Positions 4,801 to 62,036 of a DNA stretch of 64,000 bases are shown piece after piece. Below the pieces are notes generated by a model. That model was not told the origin of the DNA, made no database searches, and saw nothing but the letters and a program-made list of their open reading frames with translations. Within the stretch, counting starts at the first letter, position 1, and each line of letters begins with the position of its first letter. The stretch is from Opitutales bacterium (GTDB taxonomy: Bacteria > Verrucomicrobiota > Verrucomicrobiia > Opitutales > PNEW01): NCBI GenBank assembly GCA_963692525.1, contig OY829953.1, positions 4,420,720 to 4,484,719 on the forward strand, given 5' to 3'. The position numbers were made by a program, and so were the translations under genes.

Positions 4801-4897
4801 GGTCATTGGTGTTTAGTTTTAAGATGATAAAGGATATAGAGATTGCGGATTGTTCCTTACGCTTTTCTAGTATAAATCTTTACTTTTTAATTTTCCT

Positions 4898-5008
4898 TTT
4901 GTCATTGCGAGTCACAACGCGACGAAGCAATCCAGGGGACTGAACTTACGCAATAGACAGCCTCCTGGATCGCCGCAGTCGGCTTCGCCTTCTTCGCGAG
5001 GACAAAAG
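4898..5008. repeat. Hairpin element of the 'gtcattgcgag / caatccagg' family (short form)
   Basis: Left arm 'ttgtcattgcgagtcacaacgcgacgaagcaatccagggg', loop of about 26 nt, right arm 'ctggatcgccgcagtcggcttcgccttcttcgcgaggacaa'. Confidence 0.7.
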
Positions 5009-10116: not shown

Positions 10117-10366
10117 TTTTCGTCTTCGTCCGCATCTGCGTCAGTGTCTCTTTGTCATTGCGAGGGAGGCTATCAGCCGACCGCGGCAATCCAGGGGGAT
10201 GTCTGTTGTGTAATTACAGTCCCTAGATATTAGAGTTCACTCTAAGCTGGACGAATCCTCAATGGAAAGATCTGAGTTGTGCTTGGCAATTTAAGACACA
10301 ATGACTATTCGCCTGGATTGCCACGTCGCGTTGCTCCTCGCAATGACAATTGGGACGAAGACGAAG
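10117..10366. repeat. Nested palindrome: 'acgaagacgaag' outer arms around a 200-bp 'gtcattgcgag / caatccagg' element (X arm + ... Y arm -)
   Basis: Outer arms are 'cgtcttcgtcc' (10121-10131) and 'ggacgaagacgaag' (10353-10366). Inner arms are 10151-10203 and 10301-10350. The same element is inverted at 38491-38722. Confidence 0.8.
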
Positions 10367-10389: not shown

Positions 10390-11301
10390 CTAAACCAAAG
10401 TATTCTCAACGGAACCGATAATCCCCATTTTCTGCGCCAGCAACTCCACTTCTCTTAAATGCCAATCGTAGGCGACACGGTACGGGGGCCTGACGATTAC
10501 ATGGTCAATGACTCCCTTCCATTTAAGAATATGTTTCATCGTGGAATAATTGTAAGGCAGGAGTTGTCCCCCATAAGCGATCATCGGTAACATCTGTTCC
10601 ACGAAATAGTTTCTTGCATCTTCCCATTTTTCTTCTTTTACCAATTTGTGCAACGCGACCTCGCGTTCGGGCATAACCGCGGCAGACCCCGCGACGACCC
10701 CGTCACTCCCCGCGCCATATGTAATCAAGGTGTACATATCCGACCCGCATAAACAGGGAATAGTTAATGCCTCCGTTTTCAGCGCATCGAATGAACCAAC
10801 ATCACCGCTTACTTTCATCGCCACGATACGATCACAGGAACGAACTATGGGCAGAACATCTTTTTGTATGTCGAGACTGCCATTGTCAGTCATATCATAA
10901 ATCATGACTGAAATTTCATCTGCCATTTTCAGAAAAAACGAGCGCAGGTTCTGGTAGGATTTCTTTTTAACCATCGCAAAACTGGCACCCTGCTTTGCAG
11001 CGATCCTGGCTACTTTTATCCCTTCATCCAGATCGACCGAAATCGCTCCCAGGCCTACAGGAACCCGACCATTTACATGTTCAACTACGTGGCTTATCAC
11101 CTGCTCGATTTCATTGAGGTTCAGGCCCTCAAACTCACCCGCTTTACCACAAGCGACAAGTCCATTTACTCCCGCATCGAGAACGTAATCAATCTGGCGA
11201 TTCATGCTGAGAGGATCAAATTTGCTCCCATCTTTATTAAAGGGTGTAAGCAGCAGCGTGTATACTCCACCCTTTAAATGAATATCTTTTTCGCTCGTCA
11301 T
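10390..11301 (-). CDS. Dihydrodipicolinate synthase / N-acetylneuraminate lyase family aldolase
   Basis: 303 aa with family-like blocks LTPF, GLVACGKAGEF and IVAMKVSGD (putative Schiff-base Lys). Confidence 0.8.
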   Translation of the reverse strand: MTSEKDIHLKGGVYTLLLTPFNKDGSKFDPLSMNRQIDYVLDAGVNGLVACGKAGEFEGLNLNEIEQVISHVVEHVNGRVPVGLGAISVDLDEGIKVARIAAKQGASFAMVKKKSYQNLRSFFLKMADEISVMIYDMTDNGSLDIQKDVLPIVRSCDRIVAMKVSGDVGSFDALKTEALTIPCLCGSDMYTLITYGAGSDGVVAGSAAVMPEREVALHKLVKEEKWEDARNYFVEQMLPMIAYGGQLLPYNYSTMKHILKWKGVIDHVIVRPPYRVAYDWHLREVELLAQKMGIIGSVENTLV

Positions 11302-11404
11302 CGTATATTTTCGTGTGAATTAAATTGCATCAGTGACAGATAACAGTCCAAGTTAAAAACGCCATGTTTATTAAATCAACCCATTAAGTTTCGGACTGAT
11401 TCTT

Positions 11405-11538
11405 TTTGTCATCGCGAGGCTGATTGTCAGCCGTGGCGATCCAGGGGAATATCGGACGCATATTGTAAGCCCCCTGGAATGGAAGATGTCGCTACGCTCG
11501 GTAGCGGCAGTCGGCCACGCCTCCTTCGCAATGACAAG
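11405..11538. repeat. Hairpin element of the 'gtcatcgcgag / cgatccagg' family carrying a 25-nt module insertion
   Basis: Same element as 50311-50421, but with 'ggaagatgtcgctacgctcggtagc' (11481-11505) inserted in the right arm. Confidence 0.8.
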
Positions 11539-11790
11539 ATTGAATAATGATGGGAGAAGACGCTCTGAGAAAAAGTAATGGAGGGCCACGCTCCGTCGTG
11601 GCCGTTAATTTTAAAATTAACCCTACATATCTTATTATAGGAATATAGAAAAAGGTTATATTAAAGAAATAAAGGGACGAAGACGAAGCTGTTTCGATAG
11701 TAGGTCACTCATCTTCTCATTCACGCATATCCCTTTTGACTTTTTGACTATTATCATGTGATTTTAGGTTTTAGAGATGGGAGATAAATT

Positions 11791-13576: not shown

Positions 13577-13712
13577 GTCAAAACGTCAAAAGGTCAAAAA
13601 GTTGAAGACGATTAGAGTATAAATGCGATCTTAGAATGGGATTAATCTTTCTTTAAATGACGTATCAGAGCAGCATCTACCTTTTGACTTTTTGACCTTT
13701 TGACGTTTTGAC
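13577..13712. terminator. Perfect 26-bp inverted repeat of TTTTGAC words between convergent genes (candidate bidirectional terminator or processing stem)
   Basis: 'gtcaaaacgtcaaaaggtcaaaaagt' (13577-13602) is the exact reverse complement of 13687-13712. The loop is 84 nt. Confidence 0.75.
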
Positions 13713-13720
13713 CCATTGCA

Positions 13721-17000: not shown

Positions 17001-17418
17001 GTGCTTAGCCATAAAAAGTTAGCCACAAGAGACATGAGAGGCACAAGATTAAATTATTTCAGTAGAGCGGTCCAACATCTTTCATTCCAGAGGCAGTCAT
17101 TGTGATTACGAATACTAGTCTTTGCACTAGAACATGGGTAACTTAATATATAGTGAAGACAGGCAAACGTCTACTGAACGAAGTTTTACATCCCGGGACT
17201 GTGGTTACGCAACAGACATTCCCCTGGAGTGGAAGATGTCGCTGCGCTCGGTAGCTTCGTTGTTTCACTCCTCGCAATGACAATAGTGGGGCGGGCTGCC
17301 TGGCTCTCCGACTTGAAAGATGTCGTTCCGCTATTGCGGAACTCGGAACTGGTCCTCAGGCCTTCCGGCCATTTGGCTTTCTCGCCATCTGGATGTCAGG
17401 CCTTCCGGCTTTCTATTC
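17001..17418. repeat. Composite of repeat modules
   Basis: 'tagccacaagag..aggcacaag' words (17001-17048); a half 'caatccagg/gcaatgac' arm with an inserted 'ggaagatgtcgctgcgctcggtagc' (17212-17285); a hairpin module (17312-17352); 'ccttccggctttc' words (17353-17418). Confidence 0.7.
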
Positions 17419-21307: not shown

Positions 21308-21324
21308 AAAAAAAAGGGGGGGGG
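21308..21324. repeat. A8G9 double homopolymer tract
   Basis: 'aaaaaaaaggggggggg' lies between the four-helix-bundle gene's stop and the amidohydrolase start. Confidence 0.95.
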
Positions 21325-21328
21325 ATAA

Positions 21329-21357
21329 GTGAACAGTAAACAGTGAACAGTGAATAG
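21329..21357. repeat. 'gtgaacagt' word array, left arm of cassette 1
   Basis: 'gtgaacagtaaacagtgaacagtgaatag' is complementary to 21817-21850. Confidence 0.85.
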
Positions 21358-21369
21358 ATAGCTATCTCG

Positions 21370-21801
21370 TTATGGTGTGCTGTATTCGGCACCATCTTCT
21401 CTCATGTCAAATGGGTCCTTGACGCAAAAGGATGCGGATTTGAATGTCATACTATTCAGCATGCGTCCAATTTTGGAAAGCTTTTCACATAACTCGTTCG
21501 CTTTATCTTCGTTTAAATACATGCAATCTACCGCCGTTTCAATCCAGTGCTGCGTTTCATATTGTTCAGCATCTGCATCTGTAAGTTTACTCACAAAATG
21601 TTTCTCATAACGTCGTTTTCCCCATGCCTCAGCAATTTGGGCACCAATTGATCTGGATGACCGCCTTACTTGGTCTGTAAGCGAATAGATTTCTTCCTTA
21701 GGAACTTCTTTTGAGATTATGAAGATCTCAACAGAAACTGTTCTTGCCTTACGATAAACAATCAGGTCCCTGAAATTGGAAGCATGTGGATTTTTATGCA
21801 C
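21370..21801 (-). CDS. Four-helix-bundle protein (23S rRNA intervening-sequence protein / Avd-like family)
   Basis: 143 aa. NFRDLIVYRKA..EIYSLTDQVRRSSRSIGAQIAEAWGKR is typical of this family. GTG start, with 'gaggagg' upstream. Confidence 0.85.
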   Translation of the reverse strand: MHKNPHASNFRDLIVYRKARTVSVEIFIISKEVPKEEIYSLTDQVRRSSRSIGAQIAEAWGKRRYEKHFVSKLTDADAEQYETQHWIETAVDCMYLNEDKANELCEKLSKIGRMLNSMTFKSASFCVKDPFDMREDGAEYSTP

Positions 21802-21816
21802 GATCTACTTCCTCCT

Positions 21817-21850
21817 CTTACTGTTCACTGTTTACTGTTTACTGTTCACT
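21817..21850. repeat. 'actgttcac' word array, right arm of cassette 1
   Basis: 'cttactgttcactgtttactgtttactgttcact' has 16-20 bp of perfect complementarity to 21329-21357, depending on register. Confidence 0.85.
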
Positions 21851-21879
21851 CCTACCTATCGTCCTTTCCTCTTAAAATC

Positions 21880-23572: not shown

Positions 23573-23928
23573 AGAAAGAGATAGCCACAAAAAGCACAAG
23601 ATGCACAAGAAATAAAATTATGAACTCAAGAACTCAGGAATTTAAGAAAGTTAACCACGAATGAACACGAATAAACACGAAAATAATATTTAGAGAAAAT
23701 TGAATAGCCACAAAAAGCACAAAAGACAAAAAAATTAGAAATATATTTAATAGTAAAATTGAATATTTTTGCCTCTATTTTCGTAACTAGTTATTTCCAC
23801 TCTCTAATTATTCGTGCTATTGGTGGATGTTGTCCCGCAACAGCGGGCCTCGGTAGTGTTCATTCGTGGTATATTCTCTCACCATAATCTTTTCTGTGCT
23901 TTATGTGCCTCTTGTGGCTATCTCTTTT
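23573..23928. repeat. Nested palindrome filling the intergenic region between the GH-like paralogs
   Basis: Outer arms are 'agagatagccacaaaaagcacaag..' (23578-23612) and 'tgtgcctcttgtggctatctct' (23893-23925). Inner arms are 'aaccacgaatgaacacgaataaacacgaa' (23653-23681) and 23811-23870, the latter split by a hairpin module at 23827-23855. Confidence 0.8.
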
Positions 23929-25661: not shown

Positions 25662-25850
25662 GAGATAGCCACAAAATGTAAGGAGTGATAATGCGTGAAT
25701 GCGTATAAGCGATAATGCGGAGAGAATAGTCAAAAAGTTAAAAGGTCAAAATAAATGCTGGAATTGCCAGGATTAACTTTATTCTGTATCATCTATTCTG
25801 AATCCTGCGCATTCACGCATTCACGCATTCACGCATTCACGCACATCCGC
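25662..25850. repeat. Nested palindrome with a 4x tandem 8-mer
   Basis: 'gcattcac' x4 (25808-25843) faces 'aatgcgtgaatgcgtataagcg' (25690-25711). 'gtcaaaaagttaaaaggtcaaaa' lies at 25729-25753 and 'agatagccacaaaatg' at 25664-25680. Confidence 0.75.
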
Positions 25851-27887: not shown

Positions 27888-28080
27888 AGACCGGAGGGCC
27901 GGAAAGCCAGAAAACCGGATATCCAGTTCCGAGTTCCGCCGTCGCGGAACGACATCTTCCAAGCCAGCGTTCCGGAAAGCCGGAAGACCAGACAGCCTGA
28001 TAGCCAGAAAGCAGTGATTAGTAAATTATCTAGTGTTAGAGCTCCTGCCTTTTGACCTTTTGACTTTTTGACATTTTGAC
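27886..28080. repeat. Composite: 'ccggaaagcc' words - hairpin module - 'ccggaaagcc' words - TTTTGAC array
   Basis: Hairpin module at 27923-27965 (stem gttccgc/gcggaac). Flanking purine-rich words at 27886-27919 and 27966-28012. 'ccttttgaccttttgactttttgacattttgac' at 28047-28080. Confidence 0.75.
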
Positions 28081-38464: not shown

Positions 38465-38790
38465 CTTATTCGTTTTCGTGTTTTGTCACTATTGTCATTG
38501 CGAGGAGTGAAACGACGAAGCAATCCAGGCGAATAGTCATTTAACTTACGAATACCAGTCGCTGCTCAGATTTTCCAATGTGGGTTCGATGAACAAATTA
38601 TTGTATATTGAAAATCGGCATTCGTACTCCAGAGTGTAGCTTTACATGCAAGGATTGTGATAATGCAACTGACATCCCCCTGGATTGCCGCGGTCAGCTG
38701 ATAGCCTCCCTCGCAATGACAAGTGAGCATCATGTATCAATCCGGTCTTCCGGTTTTCCTTCTTTCTGACCTTCTGGAATTCCGGCTTTC
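38465..38790. repeat. 232-bp 'gtcattgcgag / caatccagg' element (Y arm + ... X arm -) flanked by word arrays
   Basis: Arms at 38491-38540 and 38671-38722. The rc of 38671-38722 matches 10151-10203 at 51 of 53 nt. 'ccggtcttccggttttcc..ccggctttc' words at 38731-38790. Confidence 0.8.
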
Positions 38791-40130: not shown

Positions 40131-40415
40131 GAAGGTGTCGGGTTTCAGGTGTCGGTGAAGCGGGTTCCCATCGACTACGCTCAGTGTAGACAGGTTTCAG
40201 AGTTTAGCCGGAGTACCGGTTCCGAGTTCCGCCTTTGCGGAACGACATCTTCCAAACCAGACAACCGGAAAGTCGGAAGGCCGAGGTACGAGATAGGCAA
40301 CTTGTCCTAAGCCCAGTACCTGGAAACTATCTTCACTTAAAACCTAACACCTAAAACTTAACACGCGCGTAGCGCTCCCCTCCTTTTGACTTTTTGACAT
40401 TTTGACATTTTGACC
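40131..40415. repeat. Composite of at least five module types
   Basis: 'gaaggtgtcgggtttcaggtgtcgg' (rc copy at 45879-45907). 'gggttcccatcgactacgctcag' follows. Hairpin module at 40213-40258. 'cttaaaacctaacacctaaaacttaacac' follows. TTTTGAC array at 40382-40415. Confidence 0.75.
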
Positions 40416-41330: not shown

Positions 41331-41682
41331 AATGAACAAGAATGATTCACCACGAATATGCACGAATGAGAGATAGCCACAAAATGCACAAAAAGCACAA
41401 GCTAGAATTCAGGGGTTACGCATAGTCTGATTTCAAAATTGTCCCGCTAAAAATTATGAATGAGACTGACAAAGCTCAGCTATTGCTCAGCATGCGATCA
41501 TACACCAAGATTCATCTTATAATTCTTTTAGATTCTTTCCATATATACTCTCACATGTTCTTCTAATTTTTTGAGTCTTTTGTGCCTCTTGTGGCTAATC
41601 AATCTGCTTTTTACAGTGTATGTGTCTTTATCCGCGTTGATCCAGCGGGCTATATAACGTTAAGCTATGGCCGACAGGCAGC
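41331..41682. repeat. Palindrome of 'cacgaat' and 'atagccacaa..gcacaag' words, plus further modules
   Basis: 41331-41402 faces 'tgtgcctcttgtggctaatc' (41576-41600). 'ttatccgcgttgatccagcggg' and 'gctatggccgacaggcagc' follow. Confidence 0.7.
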
Positions 41683-43132: not shown

Positions 43133-45700
43133 ATGAATCTCTCCTATGCTGTCACTTTATGTTTAACCACCTTCCTATGCTTTATCGGGCGCGCCGAAGG
43201 TGAAACGCGAAGACCAGAGAACATCACCTGGGAAGAACTGCCAGAACTCCCCAACGCCCAAGGTCTGGGAGGGGCTTTTGCCGGGGTCAGCAATGGCGCG
43301 CTCATCGTCGCTGGAGGTTCGAATTTTTCACAGGCCGCGGAAACAGGACTCGGAAGCAAAGTCTGGTATGCGGATATTTACGTTCTGCCCGAAACTGAGC
43401 GAGCAACTTGGCTAACGGGTTATAAACTGAATGAGCCGCGAGCTTACGGAGCATCCGTTAGTAGTGGTAAGCATTTAATCCTGATTGGCGGAAGCAGTGC
43501 AGAGGGTTATCACAATGAGGTTACGCAAATTACCTGGGAGGCCACTACTCAGAGAGTGAAACAAGAGTTGCTTCCTTCCCTGCCGCTAAATCTAACATTA
43601 AACGGCGCTGTTGAAATTGATGATATTGTATACGTTGTGGGGGGTCAGATCGATGACGAGAGAGCGAACTTGAAGAAGATCTTCTGGTCACTCAACCTGA
43701 ATAACCCCGAAGCGGGATGGGAATCGTTAGAAACCTGGGGGGGACCTGCCCGGAGAAGCGCTGTTGTTGTGAGTCAGAATACCGGCAATAGAAGAAACAT
43801 ATACATTATGGGCGGTGAAACACTCATCGAAAATGAAATGGGTGAAATTCACTCCAAGCAGTTGACTGACGGCTACCGCTACTCACTGCATAAGGATAAG
43901 TGGGAACAGACTAAGGATATCCCCCACCCCGTAACCGCGGCTCCCGGTATTGCTTATGGTCAATCACACATACTTATTTACGGTGGGAAAACACATGAGG
44001 ATATCGCACTGGACCCCTCTTATTCACGCGATCTTCTTGTCTATCATACGATCACGGACACCTGGCTAATAAAAGCCGAGATGCCTTTAAGCCTGGTGTC
44101 AGCAGAAGCGGTATCCTGGGGTGAAGGAATCGCCTTAACCGGTGGCGAGACCGAACCTGGGACGATGACCCCAAAGGTGCAATTAATGATTCACGACCCA
44201 GGAGCTGGCGCGTCGTTTGGAATTATAAATTACACTTTTCTCACTCTCTATCTCATGGGCATAGTTTACCTTGGCTTTTACTTTTCCAAAAGAGAAAAAG
44301 GAACGGATGATTACTTTCTTGCGGGGCGCCGTGTTCCCTGGTGGGCGGCAGGGCTCAGTTTACTGGGCACAGGGCTTAGCGCCGTTACTTATATTGCCCA
44401 TCCCGCCTTAACTTTTTCTACGGACTGGTTTTATTTTCCGGTTCGGATCGGGTTCTTTTTCGCACCGATCATGATAATTTATTTCTACCTGCCATTTTAT
44501 CGAAGGTTAAATATTACGACCGCTTACGAATACCTGGAGCTACGTTTTAACGTGGCCGTACGCTTATTCGGCAGTGCTCAATTTATTTTATTTCAATTGT
44601 TGAGGATCAGTCTAATCATGTATCTACCCGCCATTGTTCTTACCACGATCACGGGGATAAATATTTATGTATGCATACTGTCTTTAGGATTGATCAGCAC
44701 TTTTTACACGGTACTGGGCGGCATTGAAGCGGTGATTTGGTCGGATGTTATCCAAGTGTTCATATTCATTGCCGGACTCATAGTTGCCCTGATCGTCGTC
44801 TTCTTTAATGTCGATAACGGTTTTAAAGGGATGATCGATATTGGTCTCGCCGATGATAAATACCGGATGTGGTACCTGGACTGGGATTTTACCGAACCAA
44901 CATTGTGGGTATTATTAATTAGCGGTGCGATGGGTACCTTTATAGTCTTATCCTCCGACCAAAGCAGAATACAAAGATTTCTAACAACAAAAGATGAAAA
45001 AGGTGCGGCGAAAGGGTTATGGTTAAACGTAATTGCCAGTCTTCCGCTGGGGGTAATCGTCCTTGCCATGGGATCAGCACTTTACGCTTATTACAAAACA
45101 CACCCGAGCAGTGTCAGCTTGGGGATGCGGAACGACGCGATTTTTCCTCTCTTCATCGCGCAAAATCTTCCCACAGGTATTGCCGGTTTCGTCATCGCGG
45201 CCATCTTTTCCGCGGCGATGTCGAGTCTGGACAGCGGGATGAACTCTATCGCTACAGTCTTTGTCACCGATTTTTATCGTCGGTTTAAAGCGAATAATTC
45301 TGATAAATTTTATTTAAACCTCGCGCGTTCCATTACCTTGCTCATTGGTATTTTTGCAACCTCTGTCGCCCTCCTCCTGGTTACCTTGAATATTTATTCT
45401 GCTGTTATCTTCGCCAGCTCCGTCTTAGGGCTTTTTATTGGGGGATTGGGGGGATTATTTGCCCTCGGTATTTTTACTCGACGGGCGAATGGGTATGGGG
45501 CCTTCGTCGGCGCGGTCATCAGTGCAATAATCCTTTATTATGTAAAATACCATACTCCGATAAGTATATTCCTCTACCCCACGATTGGATTCACCGTCTG
45601 TCTTGTCGCCGGGTATTTTGCCAGTCTGATTATACCCGAGCGGAAAAAATCCCTCGAAGGACTGACTATTTACACGGTCCTACCGAGGGGTGATCAGTGA
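43133..45700 (+). CDS. Fusion: periplasmic kelch/NanM-like beta-propeller + sodium:solute symporter (SSS) family transporter
   Basis: Signal peptide. Kelch-like blocks GGAFAGVSNGALIVAGGSNF and YGASVSSGKHLILIGG resemble E. coli NanM. From about aa 365 it carries the SSS hallmark DYFLAGRRVPWWAAGLS and about 13 TMs. Confidence 0.8.
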   Translation: MNLSYAVTLCLTTFLCFIGRAEGETRRPENITWEELPELPNAQGLGGAFAGVSNGALIVAGGSNFSQAAETGLGSKVWYADIYVLPETERATWLTGYKLNEPRAYGASVSSGKHLILIGGSSAEGYHNEVTQITWEATTQRVKQELLPSLPLNLTLNGAVEIDDIVYVVGGQIDDERANLKKIFWSLNLNNPEAGWESLETWGGPARRSAVVVSQNTGNRRNIYIMGGETLIENEMGEIHSKQLTDGYRYSLHKDKWEQTKDIPHPVTAAPGIAYGQSHILIYGGKTHEDIALDPSYSRDLLVYHTITDTWLIKAEMPLSLVSAEAVSWGEGIALTGGETEPGTMTPKVQLMIHDPGAGASFGIINYTFLTLYLMGIVYLGFYFSKREKGTDDYFLAGRRVPWWAAGLSLLGTGLSAVTYIAHPALTFSTDWFYFPVRIGFFFAPIMIIYFYLPFYRRLNITTAYEYLELRFNVAVRLFGSAQFILFQLLRISLIMYLPAIVLTTITGINIYVCILSLGLISTFYTVLGGIEAVIWSDVIQVFIFIAGLIVALIVVFFNVDNGFKGMIDIGLADDKYRMWYLDWDFTEPTLWVLLISGAMGTFIVLSSDQSRIQRFLTTKDEKGAAKGLWLNVIASLPLGVIVLAMGSALYAYYKTHPSSVSLGMRNDAIFPLFIAQNLPTGIAGFVIAAIFSAAMSSLDSGMNSIATVFVTDFYRRFKANNSDKFYLNLARSITLLIGIFATSVALLLVTLNIYSAVIFASSVLGLFIGGLGGLFALGIFTRRANGYGAFVGAVISAIILYYVKYHTPISIFLYPTIGFTVCLVAGYFASLIIPERKKSLEGLTIYTVLPRGDQ

Positions 45701-45948
45701 ACAGTGAGAAAATGTAGCAGATTGTGCAGAAAAATCCACATGCCGCGAATTGCTTAGATTATATTGCATCGTGAATCATGCATCTTGCATCCTGAACCTT
45801 GAACTATCTTCACCTAAAACCTAAAACTTAACACTGCTACTGCATTTTCACCGTTCACTGTTTACTGTTCACTTCTTCCCTGAAACCTGACACCCGACAC
45901 CCTCTCCGCACTTTTCACTTTCCACTTATCATTTCTCACTTCTCTCTC
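45697..45948. repeat. Word-array intergenic region containing a decayed four-helix-bundle cassette
   Basis: 'gtgaacagtgag' (45697-45708) overlaps the stop codon. 'ccgttcactgtttactgttcac' at 45852-45873. 'cctgaaacctgacacccgacaccc' at 45879-45907. 'cttcacctaaaacctaaaacttaacac' at 45808-45834. Confidence 0.8.
45724..45774 (+). pseudogene. Remnant of a third four-helix-bundle gene (first ~10-16 codons only)
   Basis: 'gtgcagaaaaatccacatgccgcgaat' (MQKNPHAAN) aligns with the 5' ends of both intact copies (MHKNPHASNF and MQRNPHAVNF). It is flanked by the same words in the same relative order. Confidence 0.55.
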
Positions 45949-48528
45949 ATGAAACAATCCTGTGTTATCTTATTGTGCTTAGCTGCCTTGAATTGCATAG
46001 CAGGGCACAGTGAAAGCGCAGCGCCGACACAGGAAGCCATCAGTTGGAGTGAACTTCCCGAACTGCCTAACCGCTTAGGTCTGGGAGGGGCTTTTGCCGG
46101 GGTCAGCAATGGCGCGCTCATCGTCGCTGGTGGTTCGAATATTCCACAAGGTTCGGAAGCAGAAGTAGGAAGCAAAGTCTGGCATGCGGACATTTACGTT
46201 CTGCCCGAATCTGAGCAAGACGCATGGCTAACGGGATATAAACTGGAAAATCCTCAAGCTTACGGAGCATCCGTAAGTAGTGGTGAGCATTTGATCCTGA
46301 TTGGCGGAAATAATGCAGAGGGTTATCACAAAGAGGTTACGCAAATTACATGGGATACCACGACCCAGAAAATGAATCAAGAGTTCCTGCCGCCCCTTCC
46401 CCAGGCTCTCGCATACACCGGCGCTGCAGAAATAGATGATATTGTATATGTTGTGGGTGGTCAGGTTGACGGCGAGAGATCAAGTCTGAAGAATATTTTT
46501 TGGTCACTTGACCTGAATAATCGGGAAGCGGGATGGAAATTGCTAAAATCCTGGGAGGGCCCGGCGAGGAGAAGGGCCATCGTTGTAGGCCAGAATATTA
46601 GTAATGGCAGATATGTATACATTATTGGCGGTGAAGAAAGGATTCAGAATGAAAATGGTGAGATTCAAAGCAGGCAATTGACCGACGGCTACCGCTATTC
46701 CCTTCGTTATGAGCAATGGGAACCTATCGCCGACGCCCCCCACCCCGTAACCGGGGCCTCTGGAGTTGCCTATGGGCAATCACATATTCTTATCTTTGGA
46801 GGCAATACCTGGAAGCACAAGGATGTGAATTCAAGTAAGGATCATCCCAGCTATTCACGCGATCTTCTCGTCTATCACACGGTCACTGATACCTGGTTGG
46901 TAAAAGGTGAAATACCATTAGGGGTTGTGTCTTCTGAAGCGGTGTTATGGGAAGAAGGGATCGCCATTACCGGTGGAGAGACAGAACCAGGGATAATGAC
47001 CCCTAAGGTTCAAATAATGATTCATGATGCGGGAGCGAATGCATCGTTTGGAATCATAAATTATGCTTTTCTCCTGCTGTATATGGTGGCGCTTATCTAT
47101 ATGGGTTTTTATTTTTCCAGGCGGGAGAAAGGAACAAAAGATTATTTTCTCGCCGGTCATCGTATACCGTGGTGGGCGGCAGGGCTCAGTATTCTGGGAA
47201 CCGGACTTAGCGCCCTAACTTATATTTCCTATCCCGCATTGGCTTACACCACGGACTGGTTCCTATTTCCCGGAAGGATTGGGTTAATCTTTGCTCCAAT
47301 AATTGTTATCTATTTTTTCCTGCCGTTTTACCGAAGGCTTAATGTTACTACCGCTTACGAATACCTGGAGAAACGATTTAATCTGCCTGTTCGCTTATAC
47401 GGGAGTGTACAATTCATAATTTATCAATTAATCAGGATCAGTATTATTCTTTATCTACCGGCAGTCGTTCTCTCCACCATCGCGGGGATTAATATCTACT
47501 TATGTATTCTCTTTATGGGATTAATCAGCACCTTTTACACCGTGCTGGGTGGTATCGAAGCGGTCATATGGTCGGATGTTTTACAGGTCATTATATTTTT
47601 TATCGGTATCATTATTGCCCTCATCGTCATTCCTTTTCATATCGATAATGGTTATAAGGGGATAATCGATATCGGTTTGGCTGATGATAAATACCGCATG
47701 TTGTATCTGGAGTGGGACTTTACTGCGCCCGTCCTATGGGTGTTATTAATTAGTAGTGCTTTTGGTGCCTTTTTGGGACCATCCACCGATCAAACCACGA
47801 TCCAAAGGTATCTTACGACGAAGGACGAAAAAGCGGCCGCGAAAGGGATATGGTTAAGTGCTATAATAGGTATTCCCGTCGGTTTTTTATTTTATGGAAT
47901 GGGTACCGCCCTCTACGCCTATTATAAAACGCACCCAGCCACAGTCAGCATGGGAATGCAGAATGACGCGATTTTTCCTCTCTTCATCGCACAAAATCTT
48001 CCCTTCGGGCTTGCCGGTTTTGTCATTGCAGCCATCTTTTCCGCAGCGATGTCGAGTCTTGACAGCGGGATGAACTCGGTGGCCACGGTCATTGTCACAG
48101 ATTTTTACCGACGCTTCAAACCCAAGAAACCCGATCGTCTCTATTTGTATCTGGCTCGCTCGGTTACCTTAGTCATCGGTCTCATTGTCACCGTTATCGC
48201 CCTCTCTCTGGTTACTTTTGATATTCATAATGCCGCATTGTTTGCTACCGCTATCGCCGGATTGTTTATCAGCGGATTGGGCGGACTGTTTGCCCTGGGT
48301 ATTTTTACTCGACGTGCGAATGGTATTGGTGCCTTAGTCGGTGCGATTACCAGTGCGATAGTCCTTTATTTTGTGAAATTTGAAACACCGATACACTTTC
48401 TCCTCTACTCATCTATCGGATTCATCACCTGTTTTGTCGTTGGCTATTTATCCAGTCTATTTATACCCGAGCGAAAAAAGTCTCTCGAGGGGCTGACGAT
48501 TTATTCCATGCTCGCGAGGAAGGAATAG
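45949..48528 (+). CDS. Fusion: periplasmic kelch/NanM-like beta-propeller + sodium:solute symporter, tandem paralog
   Basis: 859 aa, colinear with 43133..45700 and roughly two-thirds identical to it. Confidence 0.8.
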   Translation: MKQSCVILLCLAALNCIAGHSESAAPTQEAISWSELPELPNRLGLGGAFAGVSNGALIVAGGSNIPQGSEAEVGSKVWHADIYVLPESEQDAWLTGYKLENPQAYGASVSSGEHLILIGGNNAEGYHKEVTQITWDTTTQKMNQEFLPPLPQALAYTGAAEIDDIVYVVGGQVDGERSSLKNIFWSLDLNNREAGWKLLKSWEGPARRRAIVVGQNISNGRYVYIIGGEERIQNENGEIQSRQLTDGYRYSLRYEQWEPIADAPHPVTGASGVAYGQSHILIFGGNTWKHKDVNSSKDHPSYSRDLLVYHTVTDTWLVKGEIPLGVVSSEAVLWEEGIAITGGETEPGIMTPKVQIMIHDAGANASFGIINYAFLLLYMVALIYMGFYFSRREKGTKDYFLAGHRIPWWAAGLSILGTGLSALTYISYPALAYTTDWFLFPGRIGLIFAPIIVIYFFLPFYRRLNVTTAYEYLEKRFNLPVRLYGSVQFIIYQLIRISIILYLPAVVLSTIAGINIYLCILFMGLISTFYTVLGGIEAVIWSDVLQVIIFFIGIIIALIVIPFHIDNGYKGIIDIGLADDKYRMLYLEWDFTAPVLWVLLISSAFGAFLGPSTDQTTIQRYLTTKDEKAAAKGIWLSAIIGIPVGFLFYGMGTALYAYYKTHPATVSMGMQNDAIFPLFIAQNLPFGLAGFVIAAIFSAAMSSLDSGMNSVATVIVTDFYRRFKPKKPDRLYLYLARSVTLVIGLIVTVIALSLVTFDIHNAALFATAIAGLFISGLGGLFALGIFTRRANGIGALVGAITSAIVLYFVKFETPIHFLLYSSIGFITCFVVGYLSSLFIPERKKSLEGLTIYSMLARKE

Positions 48529-48663
48529 AAAGCCGGAGGACCAGAGAACCAGAAGACCGAAAAGCCGTAGGACTAGTGAGAGAGGGTGGAAGATGTCGAG
48601 CTACGCTCTCGGTACGGGGTTCAGAGGATAGTGAACAGTGAACGGTAAACAGTGAACAGTGGG
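48529..48663. repeat. Left flank of cassette 2: 'ccggaggaccag' words, hairpin-type module and 'gtgaacagt' array
   Basis: Module 'gtggaagatgtcgagctacgctctcggtacggggttcagagg' at 48586-48627. Array at 48631-48663. Confidence 0.8.
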
Positions 48664-48678
48664 AAAATGATTGACGCC

Positions 48679-49113
48679 CTACAGGGTGAAATAATCGGCG
48701 TCATCTTCTTTAATAATAAATGGGAATTTCTCACAAAATGATGCGGACTTGTCTATCATGCTATTCAACATACGTCCGATTTTGGAAAGCTTTTCACATA
48801 GCTTGTTCGAATTATCATCACTTAAATACCCGCTATCTACAGCAGTCTCAATCCAATGCTGCGTTTCATATTGTTCAGCATCTGCATCTGTAAGTTTACT
48901 CACAAAATGTTTCTCGTAACGTCGTTTCCCCCATGCTTCCGCTATTTGGGCCCCAATCGATCTTGACGATCTCCGCACCTGGTCAGTAAGTGAATAGATT
49001 TCTTCCATTGGGAATTGTTTTGAGATAATGAAGATTTCCTCAGCAACATTCCTTGCTTTCTGATAAACGATCAGATCCCTGAAATTTACAGCGTGCGGGT
49101 TTCTCTGCATCAT
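48679..49113 (-). CDS. Four-helix-bundle protein (23S rRNA intervening-sequence protein / Avd-like family)
   Basis: 144 aa. A 57-aa central block is identical to 21370..21801. Confidence 0.85.
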   Translation of the reverse strand: MMQRNPHAVNFRDLIVYQKARNVAEEIFIISKQFPMEEIYSLTDQVRRSSRSIGAQIAEAWGKRRYEKHFVSKLTDADAEQYETQHWIETAVDSGYLSDDNSNKLCEKLSKIGRMLNSMIDKSASFCEKFPFIIKEDDADYFTL

Positions 49114-49123
49114 CAGCTTCCCT

Positions 49124-49249
49124 CTTACTGTTCACTGTTTACTGTTCACATCTAACTATCGGCATTTTTCCTGAACCCTGTACCGAGGGCGTAGTCCGAC
49201 ATCTTCCACTCTGAACCCTTTCTCACTGTTCACTGTTTACTGTTCACAG
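49124..49249. repeat. Right flank of cassette 2: 'actgttcac' array, inverted hairpin-type module, second 'actgttcac' array
   Basis: 49127-49149 is complementary to 48631-48663 with 1 mismatch in 23. 49170-49210 is the inverted copy of 48586-48627 (about 37 of 41). A second array lies at 49222-49249. Confidence 0.8.
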
Positions 49250-49257
49250 ATTACTGA

Positions 49258-50274
49258 TCAACTCGTCCAGACTTCACGGAAGAGTCGCAGCCAGTTTCCG
49301 CCCAGGATAAGGGTGATGTCGGCTGGCTTGTAGCCCCGAGCGAGGAGTGAATCGGCGAGGGCGGGCATCTTATCCGGTGTTTCCAGTCCTTTGGGCGCAT
49401 GTGCTAATTCCGCATAACCTTTGGGTCCGTCGAAAAAAGTGGAAGGGAGTTTTGTCCCCTGCTGCGCACCGATGTAATTCCAGAATTCCTGTGGCTGATC
49501 CTGAGTAAAGTCCGTTCCGAACCCCACGTGTTCAACACCGATTCGTTGAACGAGGTCGTCAATCGCGTCTACGAAATTCTCGATCGTGGATTCGCGGCCA
49601 GCGGGCAGAAACATGTTGAATGCCGTCGCGCCACACACGCCCCCTCGATCCGCCAATAATTTCAGTGCTTCATCCGTTTTATTTCTCGGGTGCATGTGAA
49701 AGCTCTGCGCATTGGCGTGCGTGCAGGCGACCGGTTTGCTCGACATCTCAATCGCATCGATCGTTGTCCGTTCACCACAGTGGGAGAGATCAATCAATAT
49801 ACCCAATCGGTTCATCTCATGCACTGCGTCGATACCAAAGTTGCTGAGGCCGGCATCACCGCGTTCCAAACAACCATTGCCGATAAAATTTCGCTCGTGA
49901 AAAGTGAGTTGCATGATGAGCACACCGAGGGAGCGAAACAGTTCGATGCGCCGCAAATCGTTTTCAATCGGAGTCGCGTTCTGCCATCCCAGAATAACAC
50001 CGACTTTACCGTCCTGCTTTGCTTTCAGGATGTCATCTACGCTGTTGACTTGAATGATTTGTGCACTTCGCTCCCTGAAAATATCCTGCCAGTCAGCGAT
50101 AGTGCCCAAAGTCTGTTGAAAATTTTCCCACGTCACGAGGGTCGCATTTATCGCAGTGGTACCGCTTGCGGCCAGACTCTCATAGACGGCGGGACTCTTC
50201 CAATTACTCACATTAAGCGCATCGATTACAATCGCTTCATCGTAGATTTCTTTCGCAGTATTTTCTTTTGGCAT
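49258..50274 (-). CDS. Membrane dipeptidase (peptidase family M19)
   Basis: 338 aa with VIDALN.. and DLSHCGERTTIDAIEMSSKPVACTHANA blocks. Confidence 0.85.
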   Translation of the reverse strand: MPKENTAKEIYDEAIVIDALNVSNWKSPAVYESLAASGTTAINATLVTWENFQQTLGTIADWQDIFRERSAQIIQVNSVDDILKAKQDGKVGVILGWQNATPIENDLRRIELFRSLGVLIMQLTFHERNFIGNGCLERGDAGLSNFGIDAVHEMNRLGILIDLSHCGERTTIDAIEMSSKPVACTHANAQSFHMHPRNKTDEALKLLADRGGVCGATAFNMFLPAGRESTIENFVDAIDDLVQRIGVEHVGFGTDFTQDQPQEFWNYIGAQQGTKLPSTFFDGPKGYAELAHAPKGLETPDKMPALADSLLARGYKPADITLILGGNWLRLFREVWTS

Positions 50275-50285
50275 TGTCAGTTTCT

Positions 50286-50602
50286 GATTTACGATTGTCG
50301 TTTGATTCTATTTGTCATCGCGAGGCTGCTTGTCAGCCGTGGCGATCCAGGGGAATATCGGACGCATATTGTTAGCCCCCTGGATTGCCGCAGTCGGCTT
50401 CGCCTCCTTCGCAATGACAAGAGAGAATGCAGGATACATGTTGTAAGATTCAAGATTATCCCTAGCGGTTGCCACTTTTTTTTATGACCACATACTCGCA
50501 TTTCCGCATTCACGCTTGTCCGCTTTTTCGCATTTCCCTTTTTGACATTTTGACCTTTCTTGCCGGCCATAGCCTTGGCGACGGCTGGTGACTTTTTGAC
50601 CC
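50286..50602. repeat. Composite: word arrays + 111-bp 'gtcatcgcgag / caatccagg' hairpin element + TTTTGAC arrays
   Basis: The element at 50311-50421 is the uninterrupted version of 11405-11538. 'ggccatagccttggcgacggctgg' at 50565-50588. TTTTGAC words at 50538-50556 and 50590-50602. Confidence 0.8.
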
Positions 50603-52305: not shown

Positions 52306-52676
52306 AGTCAAAAAGGGAGATGCGATTATGAGTGTAAGCGAAAATGCGGTAATGCGGTAATTTGGAAAGAATAAACCGCGAATAGACACCGATATATATA
52401 AGAATAAGATTTAGGAAATTAGAACTCAGGAATTCAGGAAATGAGTGGAGAATATTATAGAGTAGAATATGATTGAACAGCAGAGACGCTGAGATCGAAG
52501 AGAATACAACAAGGGTTATTTTATATGAAACACGATACTATTAATTTTTTAAATAATTATTTTACTCTCTAATTATTTGTGCTCATTGGTGTTCATTCGT
52601 GGTTTTTTACTTGTATTCCTGAGTTCTTAAGTTCCAAATTTTCACTCATTTGTTTTTTGTGCCTTTTGTGGCTATA
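52306..52676. repeat. Composite element (copy a of the 'ggaaagaataaaccgcgg' family) plus paired word arrays
   Basis: 52364-52520 is homologous to 56724-56890. 'agaactcaggaattcaggaaa' (52421-52441) faces 'attcctgagttcttaagttcc' (52615-52635). 'actctctaattatttgtgctcattggtgttcattcgtggt' matches 23799-23870. Confidence 0.75.
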
Positions 52677-56599: not shown

Positions 56600-56999
56600 C
56601 CTCCAACGGAGGGTAAAATGACAATGCGATTGTGCGTAAAAGCGTACCGAGGGCAAAGTCCGCCTGTCGTCCATAGCCTCGTGCGACGGTTGGGCATCCT
56701 CAAATGCTTGTATACGGTAATGTGGAAAGAATAAACCGCGGATGGACGCGGATTAATACGGATATAATATAAGAATAAGATTTAGAAATTTAGAACTCAG
56801 GAAATCAGGAAAAAAGAAGATAATATTACAAGTAGAATATAATTGAACCGCAAAGCCGCTGAGATCGCTTCGCTCGGGAAGGGGTTATTTCCTCATTCGA
56901 CTTTCGACCTTTGACTTTAGACTCCTCTAAAACAAAATCCGCGCATATCCGCGTAATCCGCGGTTATTGATTCTTTATTTCCTGAGTTCATGAGTTCCA
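56600..56999. repeat. Composite element (copy b of the 'ggaaagaataaaccgcgg' family), itself a nested palindrome
   Basis: 'aataaaccgcggatggacgcggatt' (56730-56754) faces 'aatccgcgcatatccgcgtaatccgcggttatt' (56936-56968). 'agaactcaggaaatcaggaaa' faces 'tttcctgagttcatgagttcc' (56977-56997). Confidence 0.75.
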
Positions 57000-57003
57000 A
57001 ATT

Positions 57004-58098: not shown

Positions 58099-58117
58099 CG
58101 CAGGAATTAAAGAAAGT

Positions 58118-58350
58118 TAAATACGAATGAACACTAATAAACACGAAAACAATATTTCGAGAAAATTGAATAGCCACAAAAAGCACAAGAAAGAAAATTA
58201 AGAACTCAGGAATTTAAAAAAATAAACCACGGATAAACGCGGATGCAGTATTCTCTACTCTTTTCCTGATTTCCTGAGTCCTAAATTCCTAAATCTTCTC
58301 CTTATATCATATCCGTGTTTATCCGCGTCCATCCGCGGTTCATTCTTTCC
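58118..58350. repeat. Composite element (copy c, inverted) plus 'cacgaat' and 'atagccacaa' words
   Basis: The rc of 58262-58350 matches 56724-56812. 58118-58190 matches 23647-23730. Confidence 0.8.
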
Positions 58351-58383
58351 CTTATCCGCAATCCGGAATTGATAGTCATTCAG

Positions 58384-58857
58384 TCATTCCACGAGGGGTA
58401 ACCACTGAATATTCTTCAAATTCGCCCTTCTCCCAATTCCTTCAGGAGGTGAATAATTTCTGGCCAGGTAATCCAGGATAATAGTTTCATTATCACCCAG
58501 GTCCCAAAAATTCTGCGTTTCCTGCATCCACCGGATAGTACTTAACCAGCCGTCACGTGTTGCCCTATTTTGTGTGACGAGGAGAGATGAATGGCATCCC
58601 ATGCAGTTCGCCCTGACTTCTTCGAAACCTGAATCGATAATAAAGCCAGTGGTATCATCAATCCCTGGTTCTGCTTTTTCCATCTCTGGAGAGGTACTTG
58701 TGTTAACGATCAACACTTTATTTTCTCCAGATGGGGGGGAGCTTGTACTATTTTTATCGGTGAGGGGCTGTTGAAATAAATTTTTAAAAAAAACACCGTT
58801 TGAGAAAATGATCGCAACAACAATTAATGTACCGAACAAAAGCTTGGTTTTACACAT
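58384..58857 (-). CDS. Monoheme c-type cytochrome, probable partner of the molybdoenzyme
   Basis: 157 aa with an N-terminal TM/signal and a single CMGCH (CxxCH) site. It lies 7 nt downstream of the SorA-like gene. Confidence 0.6.
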   Translation of the reverse strand: MCKTKLLFGTLIVVAIIFSNGVFFKNLFQQPLTDKNSTSSPPSGENKVLIVNTSTSPEMEKAEPGIDDTTGFIIDSGFEEVRANCMGCHSSLLVTQNRATRDGWLSTIRWMQETQNFWDLGDNETIILDYLARNYSPPEGIGRRANLKNIQWLPLVE

Positions 58858-60240: not shown

Positions 60241-60510
60241 AGAAGAATTGCCACCAGTCGTCGTCCCGCAGTCGCGGGACTATGCCCGACAGGCATCGAT
60301 CGATATGCGAAATGCAGGGTTCCCGTCTTCGCTTCGCTTCGCCGTGACAGGCAGGGTTCGGGGTTCGGGGTTTAGAGAAGATAGATATACGATTTCCGAT
60401 ATCCGATATGCGATATGCGATATTCGAAGTATCGATAAGGTTCAACCCCTCGCAAATCGAATATCGAATATCAAACGTCGGATATCATTTCCCTCGCATA
60501 TCAAACATCA
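60241..60510. repeat. Composite: hairpin module, 'cttcgcttcgcttcgcc' words and unit U1 of the 'gatatgcgatat' family
   Basis: 'gtcgtcccgcagtcgcgggac' at 60258-60280. U1 at 60376-60510 is about 85% identical to U3 at 61906-62036. Confidence 0.75.
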
Positions 60511-61620: not shown

Positions 61621-62036
61621 TAAGATAGATATACGATGTTTGATATACGATATGCGATGTAAGCTATGCGATAATGCGTATAAGCGTGAATGAGGTAATG
61701 CGGATTTAACATCACTCAATCCGCCATCGAAAATCGGATATCGATAAGATAGATATGCGATATCCGAAGTAAGAAAGAAATCTCCAACCCTTCACAAATC
61801 GAACGTCGGATATCAAACGTCGGATATCAAATCCCTCGATACGCGGTCATGCATATATGCGTGAATGAGGTTATGGGGATTTAACATCACTCAATCCGCC
61901 ATCGATAAGAAAGATATACGATTTAGGATATCAGATATATGATATTCGAAGTATGGATAAGGTTCAATCCCTCGCACATCGAATATCGGATATCAAACAT
62001 CGGATATCAATTCCCTCGGATATCAAATCAATCGAT
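61621..62036. repeat. Tandem composite units (V, U2, V', U3) of the 'gatatgcgatat / atcggatatcaaac' family
   Basis: U2 at 61745-61840 and U3 at 61906-62036. There is a ~45-bp direct repeat 'gcgtgaatgagg.ta.tg.ggatttaacatcactcaatccgccatcga' at 61683-61730 and 61859-61903. Confidence 0.8.

Follow-up and report, generated by a model that had tools for sequence, protein, structure and literature searches.

Does a small gene enclosed by inverted arrays of short repeats form a single unit with them, or do gene and repeats merely share a spacer? The question is raised by a locus of an Opitutales bacterium (assembly GCA_963692525.1, contig OY829953.1), lying within the stretch of 64,000 nucleotides analysed here and referred to as the window. 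The spacer between positions 48529 and 49260 is the entire gap separating two convergent genes, one encoding a fusion of NanM with a sodium:solute symporter (45949..48528, +) and the other an M19 dipeptidase (49258..50274, -). It houses an open reading frame (ORF) for a four-helix-bundle protein, flanked on both sides by arrays of seven-nucleotide units (heptads). A first-pass annotation of the sequence had described this arrangement as a cassette, the second of two in the window, and the name cassette 2 is kept here. The arrangement was confirmed and is not due to chance; its interpretation as a cassette is supported, and extends well past the window.

The gene and its tiered arms

The 144-aa product matches the profile PF05635 (23S_rRNA_IVP) over positions 1-106 of 106, with an E-value of 4e-32 and 110.9 bits against a cut-off of 33.8, and TIGR02436 ('four helix bundle protein') with an E-value of 8e-30 and 103.3 bits against a cut-off of 24. 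With a score above the curated cut-off across the whole domain, it is a full-length member of the S23p/IVP family, in agreement with the four-helix bundle proposed in the first pass. Relatives of solved structure are 2RLD (E 5.5e-7) and 2GSC, the protein XCC0516 (E 7e-5), each deposited with 5 chains. The family was first discovered within 23S rRNA intervening sequences (IVSs), and has a very large membership: of only 8,000 candidates scored, over 4,800 reach an E-value of 1e-40 or less. It is still called functionally uncharacterised (10.1101/2024.02.27.582315; PMC4990558), and recent papers report it scattered through cas loci and 16S/23S rRNA insertions. The PADLOC defence models gave no match. 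Both the family of the product and the architecture of the cassette can be assigned with high confidence.

Read on the sense strand of the ORF, the elements follow each other in the order: dipeptidase stop and outermost array (U2), outer arm, spacer of 20 nt, inner array (U1), 13 nt, ORF, 12 nt, inner 3' array (D1), outer arm, octads and symporter stop (Table 1). As first reported, the inner arms are complementary at 22 of 23 positions in the best register read from the sequence (49127-49149 with 48638-48660); by repeat search the match covers 34 nt at 85% (48627-48660 and 49127-49160). The outer inverted pair, initially described as modules of about 41 nt, measures 42 nt (48583-48624 and 49171-49212) and is 88% complementary (37/42). 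A further array, noticed in the first pass at 49222-49249, was recovered by repeat search within U2 (49221-49255) as an 89% direct repeat of 49123-49157, and the inverted repeat is in fact triply tiered. The upstream M19 dipeptidase gene terminates with the first TGA of U2 (49258-49260), and the 13 nt from U1 to the ATG contain AAGAGGGAAG.

The word ACTGTTCACTGTT, with up to 2 mismatches, is found 23 times in the window, versus 1.1 expected matches, a number reached by 0/100 shuffles. All but two of these matches (21/23) fall at three loci, namely cassette 1, cassette 2 and a decayed copy (45693-45876), the others being isolated 2-mismatch matches at 10752 and 16476. The predicted fold of the sense RNA (48560-49262) shows a closing stem around the ORF, with z = -7.4.

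Heptad arms at homologous loci and behaviour as a unit

Homologues were collected by scanning one genome per species, and the best 80 of the resulting 249 relatives were analysed; the sample covers about eight phyla (Verrucomicrobiota, Lentisphaerota, Chloroflexota, Desulfobacterota and other 'delta' lineages, Bacteroidota, Planctomycetota, Acidobacteriota and Ignavibacteria). For each locus, the 200 nt preceding the gene were aligned with the 200 nt following it, taken as reverse complement; inverted repeats were called from a Smith-Waterman score of 34 upwards, and equally sized intervals, shifted to other positions of the same loci, served as controls. An inverted repeat was found around the gene in 48 of the 74 testable loci, versus none of the 142 displaced intervals.

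On the sense strand, the word of the 5' arm in these 48 loci is RGTRAWC (logo values: G2 0.95, T3 0.92, A5 0.78, C7 0.83), and the 3' arm carries its complement. Tandem Repeats Finder (TRF) detected period-7 arrays ahead of the gene in 69 loci and behind it in 56; their modal length is 5 units (30/125 arrays). RGTRAWC arrays reach a density of 1.9 per kb within the 250-nt flanks of the gene, versus 0.5 per kb in the remaining non-coding sequence of these loci, which means that they also occur away from the gene. The unit is composed of an (RGTRAWC)n array, a ribosome-binding site, the ORF and a complementary (GWTYACY)n array, to which extra outer tiers are added in this Opitutales lineage. Distant relatives (45-50% identity), located on cyanobacterial plasmids, feature purine-rich arrays of 7-8 nt units upstream and their complement downstream, based on other words (GCAGGGGA, GGGGAGA).

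In some genomes one arm has lengthened to 130-250 nt, the equivalent of up to about 36 heptads, and the other has stayed short (L009 2038-2198, L025 2012-2142, L042 2073-2205, L052 1206-1456); ACTGATA/GATAACT units, which correspond to the published TAACTGA repeat, are present in the 3' arms of L009 and L042. In one Opitutales sample (L092, 1-1962), two genes for reverse transcriptases of the group II intron type (RVT_1 + GIIM) lie upstream of a four-helix-bundle cassette, and the same locus in L093 has a fragment of a DDE transposase in their place; the region is a hotspot of mobile DNA.

The arm-gene-arm layout, which the first-pass annotation had attributed to two loci of the window, is indeed common to both. 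The ORF of cassette 1 shares 80% aa identity with that of cassette 2, and its arrays form an inverted pair of 30 nt at 93%. In a strain 98% identical (L090), cassette 1 occupies the same locus with exactly one heptad fewer. A homopolymer pair, A8 followed by G10 (21311-21327, +), abuts its 3' array and differs in length between the window and L090. In the decayed third copy, the start of the ORF matches cassette 1 at 24/28 positions, the 3' array is found at 45847-45876, and remnants of the outer tiers are retained. The interior of this copy is filled at 45805-45840 by a module, ACTATCTTCACYTAAAACCTAA..AACTTAACAC, which recurs at 40334-40364, upstream of the (TTTTGAC)4 array 40384-40414. The genes on its two sides, 43133..45700 and 45949..48528, are tandem paralogous fusions of a Kelch propeller, similar to N-acetylneuraminate epimerase, with a sodium:solute symporter. 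A tblastn search of the window (E <= 50) revealed no four-helix-bundle remnants in other inverted array pairs, beyond these three loci.

Comparison with related genomes shows that the arms vary with the gene and not with the locus, the check that had been proposed for a mobile unit. In a related Opitutales genome (L002), where the protein is 94% identical, the element lies between a 2-hydroxyacid dehydrogenase gene and a gene for an RND pump, neither of which has a homologue in the window. DNA similarity to cassette 2 begins at GGGTTCAGG-AAAATGCCGATAGTTAGA, spans array, ORF, array and the whole 3' outer module, and then ends; the 3' outer arm is about 94% identical between the two. A (GGGTTCR)n stretch occupies the same position in L002 and L091-L093 as in the 5' outer arm of cassette 2, and in other phyla the gene is accompanied by inverted heptad arrays of its own. 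Conversely, an empty orthologous site is present in L082-L085, with the same gene order, 112 nt between the convergent genes, no cassette, and a dipeptidase 89% identical. This empty-site relative has a single Kelch-symporter fusion gene; the spacer between the two copies of the window is the one that houses the decayed cassette.

The U1/U2 direct repeat (89%) could be a target duplication, but it flanks the 5' outer tier only. The contig of the closest orthologue (L086) ends in repeats, 58 nt past the stop, and most contigs with close homologues measure less than 3 kb, which is to be expected of repeated DNA. Two samples of one other locus differ by four heptads. Taken as a unit, the cassette has quite probably been gained and lost between lineages.

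Table 1. Coordinates of the elements of cassette 2, of its copies and of other repeats in the window
Feature	Positions	Strand	Sequence or remarks
U2, outermost 5' heptad array	49219..49260	-	sense TGATCAG TAATCTG TGAACAG TAAACAG TGAACAG TGAGAAA
5' outer arm	49171..49218	-	sense GGGTTCAG, then small hairpin module TGGAAGATGTCGGACTACGCCCTCGGTAC, then AGGGTTCAG
Conserved 20-nt spacer between outer and inner 5' tiers	49151..49170	-	sense GAAAAATGCCGATAGTTAGAT; common to L002 and partly (CGATAGGTAGGA) to cassette 1
U1, 5' inner heptad array	49123..49150	-	sense GTGAAC AGTAAAC AGTGAAC AGTAAGA
Shine-Dalgarno-like stretch between last heptad and ATG	49114..49126	-	sense AAGAGGGAAGCTG
Four-helix-bundle ORF, 144 aa	48679..49113	-	from the ORF list; matches PF05635 and TIGR02436
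D1, 3' inner heptad array	48627..48666	-	complementary to U1 (22/23) and to U2
3' outer arm	48583..48626	-	CTGAACCCC, then module reversed (GTACCGAGAGCGTAGCTCGACATCTTCCA), then CCCT
(CCRGARRA) octad run	48529..48582	.	from symporter stop (48526-48528) to cassette; context, without counterpart in L002
Cassette 1, paralogous unit	21319..21853	-	3' array 21325-21358; ORF 21370..21801; 5' array 21820-21853
Decayed third copy	45691..45900	+	both arrays and first ~28 nt of ORF; rest of ORF deleted
Small hairpin module (TGGAAGATGTCG, short stem-loop, CTCGGWAC)	11480, 17230, 27950(-), 29394, 33541(-), 40243(-), 48587, 49197(-)		exact matches
Long hairpin repeat family	4897-5005, 10150-10360, 11400-11540, 17260-17290, 38490-38720, 50310-50420		
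Composite blocks	52406-52642, 56780-57002; also 23575-23927, 41378-41600, 58099-58384		

Probable transcription from the host gene and competing explanations

The nearest long upstream ORF is co-oriented with the gene in 76 of 79 loci (p = 4e-7 versus a generous background of 0.75), whereas the downstream neighbour is co-oriented in 56/78, which equals the background. The median gap between the upstream ORF and the start of the four-helix-bundle gene is 89 nt, mostly occupied by the array. In 28/51 loci, the end of the upstream open frame falls in the array or at most 3 nt away, and in 38/51 at most 15 nt away; for convergent downstream frames, the corresponding figures with respect to the 3' array are 10/31 and 14/31. 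The 3' array reads RGTRAWC on the sense strand of such convergent genes. Positions 3-5 of the word correspond to TRA (TGA or TAA) and the period is 7; therefore, three units place a stop codon in every frame for a ribosome entering from either side. Host frames are closed by array stops twice in the window, in the dipeptidase gene, whose last codon is AGT versus GAT in two orthologues, and in the first symporter gene (SSF gene 43133..45700), whose stop codon (45698-45700) lies inside the first heptad of the 5' array of the decayed copy.

The stretch 49114..49126 leaves no room for a promoter of the cassette's own. A scan of the minus strand upstream of the ORF found no sigma-70-like site, and terminator-like sites were likewise absent from the interval that separates the M19 gene from the ORF; the evidence is weak, as Verrucomicrobial promoters may differ. 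Because of the co-orientation with the upstream gene, the short median gap, the 13 nt between array and ATG, and this lack of promoter-like and terminator-like sites, the cassette is probably transcribed by read-through from the host gene, having no promoter of its own.

The explanation that we prefer, to which we give somewhat better than an even chance, is that cassette 2 is a promoterless-looking S23p/IVP cassette, read through from its host gene, whose arms could close an RNA stem as in 23S rRNA IVSs; on this reading, it is the counterpart of ORF-bearing 23S rRNA IVSs in protein-gene territory. Read-through of the host gene would yield a transcript spanning the cassette, in which the arms would pair to form a long interrupted stem of about 90 bp, enclosing the ribosome-binding site and the ORF. 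By analogy with the rRNA-borne members, RNase III would cut this stem and free the cassette RNA from the host transcript, and, thanks to the TRA stops in all frames, an insertion right at the end of a gene would do no harm. In Coxiella, the S23p ORF of the IVS is bracketed by a 28-bp terminal stem, which is cut in vitro by RNase III (PMC4990558). The RNA stem and its processing by RNase III, modelled on that case, are proposed more tentatively than the rest, at somewhat below an even chance.

Several observations do not fit easily with this explanation. The ORF of the Coxiella IVS appears untranslated (PMC4990558). Alignment of filled and empty sites, whose intergenic DNA is too diverged outside the coding ends, gave neither an exact junction nor a target duplication, and the pattern of presence and absence is compatible with either gain or loss. 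The words of the cyanobacterial relatives (GCAGGGGA) contain no stop codons, and one Oscillatoria copy has direct instead of inverted arrays. Mismatches between the arms are, on the sense strand, 66 of the G:U type versus 79 of the A:C type, without a wobble signature; given this lack of G:U excess, complementarity could be maintained at the DNA level. Between the two arrays, unit numbers are only weakly correlated (rho 0.26, p = 0.07), and one arm is sometimes many times longer than the other. The conservation of the word across phyla (G2, T3, C7) goes beyond what base pairing alone requires, and stop codons account for it only in part; they were rejected as a full explanation, G2 and C7 being more conserved than A5 and the cyanobacterial words stop-free. 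It points to sequence-specific recognition or to a copying process at the DNA level, and in this respect argues against the RNA step.

One alternative to be weighed is that the arms act on DNA. The cassette would then be a non-autonomous mobile element, with the arms as its terminal inverted repeats or as portable homology arms, and the RNA stem would be a by-product. An enzyme encoded at another site could move it, or recombination between arrays could exchange it, for instance into inverted array pairs that lack an ORF. MITE-like features (MITE, miniature inverted-repeat transposable element) are present, namely terminal inverted repeats, three copies in the window, a different locus in L002 and an empty orthologous site. 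Besides the differing loci of related genomes, the empty site, the absence of a G:U excess and the short contigs of close homologues, this alternative would explain why the arms mirror one another even in the order of variant heptads, why the small hairpin module sits at mirror positions of both outer arms, as if one had been copied, and why many inverted array pairs without ORF exist in the window and in Xanthomonas (PMC4692102). Yet neither a transposase nor a recombinase is found in or beside the cassettes of the window, no target-site duplication was identified, the arms are unequal in length and vary by slippage, and transposition by itself does not predict the 96% co-orientation with the upstream gene, though selection for expression could add it. 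On balance, we consider this alternative rather unlikely. A slightly lower probability is given to the arrays being putative RNA or DNA binding sites of the oligomeric four-helix-bundle protein, serving autoregulation, with the other arrays as a regulon or as footprints. Avd belongs to the four-helix-bundle family and works in complex with RNA, and the word, not pairing alone, is conserved across phyla; the modal array has 5 units (30/125), and 5 is also the number of chains in both 2RLD and 2GSC. Moreover, the word changes with the protein subfamily, from RGTRAWC here to GCAGGGGA in Nostocales and GGGAATC beside XCC0516 in Xanthomonas (PMC4692102). Set against this are the net charge of the ORF product, about -3 with an acidic tail (counted from the translation), the 186 arrays of Xanthomonas, a single one of which is placed beside the IVP-family gene XCC0516 (PMC4692102 table), the competing explanation of the four-unit mode in Xanthomonas by G-quadruplexes, and the presence in the window of arrays of at least eight unrelated words with one four-helix-bundle subfamily only. 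The DNA-level and protein-binding alternatives are not mutually exclusive with the transcribed, stem-closed cassette that we prefer.

The two remaining alternatives deny that the gene and its arms belong together, or assign the gene to another system. The genome could fill its intergenic DNA with word arrays for an unrelated reason, a small gene happening to lie between two of them. Arrays of period 7-8 are indeed concentrated in the non-coding DNA of the window (43 in 10.8 kb, i.e. 4.0 per kb, versus 8 in 53 kb of coding DNA, i.e. 0.15 per kb), and several inverted array pairs enclose no gene. The first-pass annotation had stated that arrays equally frequent around unrelated genes would speak against a cassette; arrays of other words are very common, whereas the AGTGAAC family is confined to the three four-helix-bundle loci, save the two isolated matches already mentioned. 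With the inverted arrays found at homologous genes across phyla and at none of the controls, and with arms that accompany the gene to another locus in L002, such a coincidence is very improbable. Least probable of all, to the point of being hardly credible, is that cassette 2 is the remnant of a diversity-generating retroelement (DGR), its ORF being the Avd accessory gene. The ORF product belongs to the same fold family as Avd and weakly matches the Avd-type models, PF22296 (bAvd-like, E 8e-13) and NF033474 (DGR Avd), but with the latter it scores 40 bits, below the equivalog cut-off of 80. The ORF is flanked by genes for a dipeptidase and a transporter, none of the cassette copies in the window has a reverse transcriptase beside it, and template and variable repeats are lacking. 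Given the score and the absence of a nearby reverse transcriptase, the product is not an Avd.

Other repeats of the window and related systems

The outer arms contain a small hairpin module, whose core TGGAAGATGTCG...CTCGGTAC occurs in 8 exact copies in the window, versus 0.42 expected, and in three subtypes. The outer modules of cassette 2 thus belong to a dispersed hairpin family, as the first-pass annotation had indicated. Its further proposal, that the cassette is nested inside this other repeat type, was not supported. The subtype of cassette 2 (TGGAAGATGTCG-rrCTACGCyCTCGGTAC) is found only in both its arms and in the 3' arm of L002, and all three copies are embedded in (GGGTTCR)n or its complement, the second arm tier, also present in other Opitutales copies. 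Since the subtype is limited to this cassette lineage and sits inside that tier, rather than being a pre-existing hairpin, the module is part of, or inserted into, the arms, and the nesting is opposite to that proposed. Its mirror positions in the two arms possibly reflect two targeted insertions, or the copying of one arm onto the other. Elsewhere, the module is often flanked by octads of the (CCGGAAAG) type, and at 11480 and 17230 it lies within a longer hairpin element, where it replaces about 5 nt; it behaves like a very small nested insertion.

The non-coding DNA of the window is crowded by the period 7-8 arrays, based on many words (GTCAAAA, CGCATTCA, GATATCC, CCGGAAAG and others); examples are 13577-13713, 25690-25843, 28048-28080, 40384-40414, 50497-50558, 60384-60486 and 61625-62027. 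The inverted array pairs without ORF enclose 30-315 nt. A family of long hairpin repeats, TTTGTCATTGCGAGG...GCAATCCAGGGG...CCCCTGGATTGCC...CGCAATGACAA, is represented by at least six intergenic copies, complete or partial, without match in Rfam. Composite intergenic blocks reuse words in mirror order (ATTTAGAA/CTCAGGAA, GCCACAAAAAGCACAA, AACACGAAT); they resemble larger ORF-less inverted array elements and occur in several copies. An Rfam scan of the window, at gathering thresholds, identified no family, rRNA included.

Among the known systems close to cassette 2 are the ORF-bearing 23S rRNA IVSs of Leptospira and Coxiella burnetii, which also encode a PF05635 protein, hold the ORF between complementary, stem-forming termini, have no recognisable promoter of their own, so that transcription would come from the host gene, and show a sporadic distribution suggesting horizontal spread, with ORF-less and decaying versions (PMC4990558; 10.1101/2024.02.27.582315). 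In contrast to them, cassette 2 lies between a dipeptidase and a transporter gene, and not in helix 25 or 45; its arms are heptad arrays, in up to three tiers and about 90 nt per side, instead of a unique 28-bp stem; and its stem is predicted only, whereas RNase III cleavage is known for the IVS.

Intergenic heptamer arrays form a second set of relatives, one type being the cyanobacterial short tandemly repeated repetitive (STRR) heptamers. Others are the TAACTGA repeats of Beggiatoaceae, Cyanobacteria and Bacteroidetes, which contain stops in all three frames (PMC4679880), and the GGGAATC/GGGGAYT repeats of Xanthomonas and Nostoc, which in Xanthomonas include 70-75 convergent inverted pairs and lie close to stop codons (PMC4692102). 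Like the arrays described here, they have units of 7 nt, mostly in 2-6 copies, lie in non-coding DNA beside or overlapping the stops of upstream ORFs, and are patchily distributed across phyla; the published arrays have neither a known vehicle nor an agreed function (PMC4679880, PMC4692102), whereas in the present case they make up the arms on either side of a gene. Neither paper mentions four-helix-bundle or IVP genes. However, in X. campestris repeat #15 (622956-622983), a four-unit array of the GGGAATC type, is placed by Table A of the S2 File of PMC4692102 between bccP (XCC0517), from which it is 6 nt away, and XCC0516, whose annotated start it overlaps; XCC0516 encodes the crystallised IVP-family protein (PDB 2GSC) matched by the cassette 2 ORF; on this adjacency PMC4692102 is silent.

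Resemblance to MITEs and to repetitive extragenic palindromic sequences (REPs), including bacterial interspersed mosaic elements (BIMEs), is limited to short, multicopy, intergenic inverted repeats and to ORF-less derivatives able to fold in transcripts; unlike them, the cassette has a conserved protein gene and arms made of word arrays subject to slippage, with no target-site duplication seen. Integron cassettes also carry a single ORF without recognisable promoter, expressed from outside, and are bounded by a structured, imperfect inverted repeat, but this is one attC, at the 3' end only, and is accompanied by an integrase and attI, whereas cassette 2 has arms made of word arrays on both sides. 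None of the ORFs examined beside the three cassette loci is integrase-like, no scan of the whole window for integrase genes having been made.

The protein family, the ORF-bearing rRNA IVSs and the intergenic heptamer arrays were known already. Cassette 2 adds to them an element of the IVS type that lies outside rRNA and has conserved arms of heptad arrays; its mechanism is only partly established. No paper was found linking PF05635, TIGR02436 or S23p with inverted or heptamer repeats, within a literature coverage that leaves out subscription journals, where a prior description is possible; the association between IVP genes and heptamer arrays appears undescribed. A broader hypothesis, which we regard as speculative and on the whole unlikely, would make IVP/S23p genes and heptamer arrays (TAACTGA, GGGAATC, STRR-like, RGTRAWC) the two halves of one widespread system: a promoterless cassette settling on the stop codons of host genes, an oligomeric protein recognising the arrays, and spread and decay leaving solitary and paired arrays, hundreds of them in some genomes, with the rRNA IVS merely its best-known landing site.

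On the practical side, the arrays break assemblies, and their stop codons are credited to host genes by gene callers. The description of a gene-plus-arms unit, with fixed polarity, upstream co-orientation, host ORFs ending in arrays, and presence or absence between relatives, makes two open questions testable, since it offers a candidate RNA or DNA ligand for the PF05635 protein and a carrier for heptamer arrays. It also suggests that the intervening sequences of rRNA genes are a special case of a general cassette.

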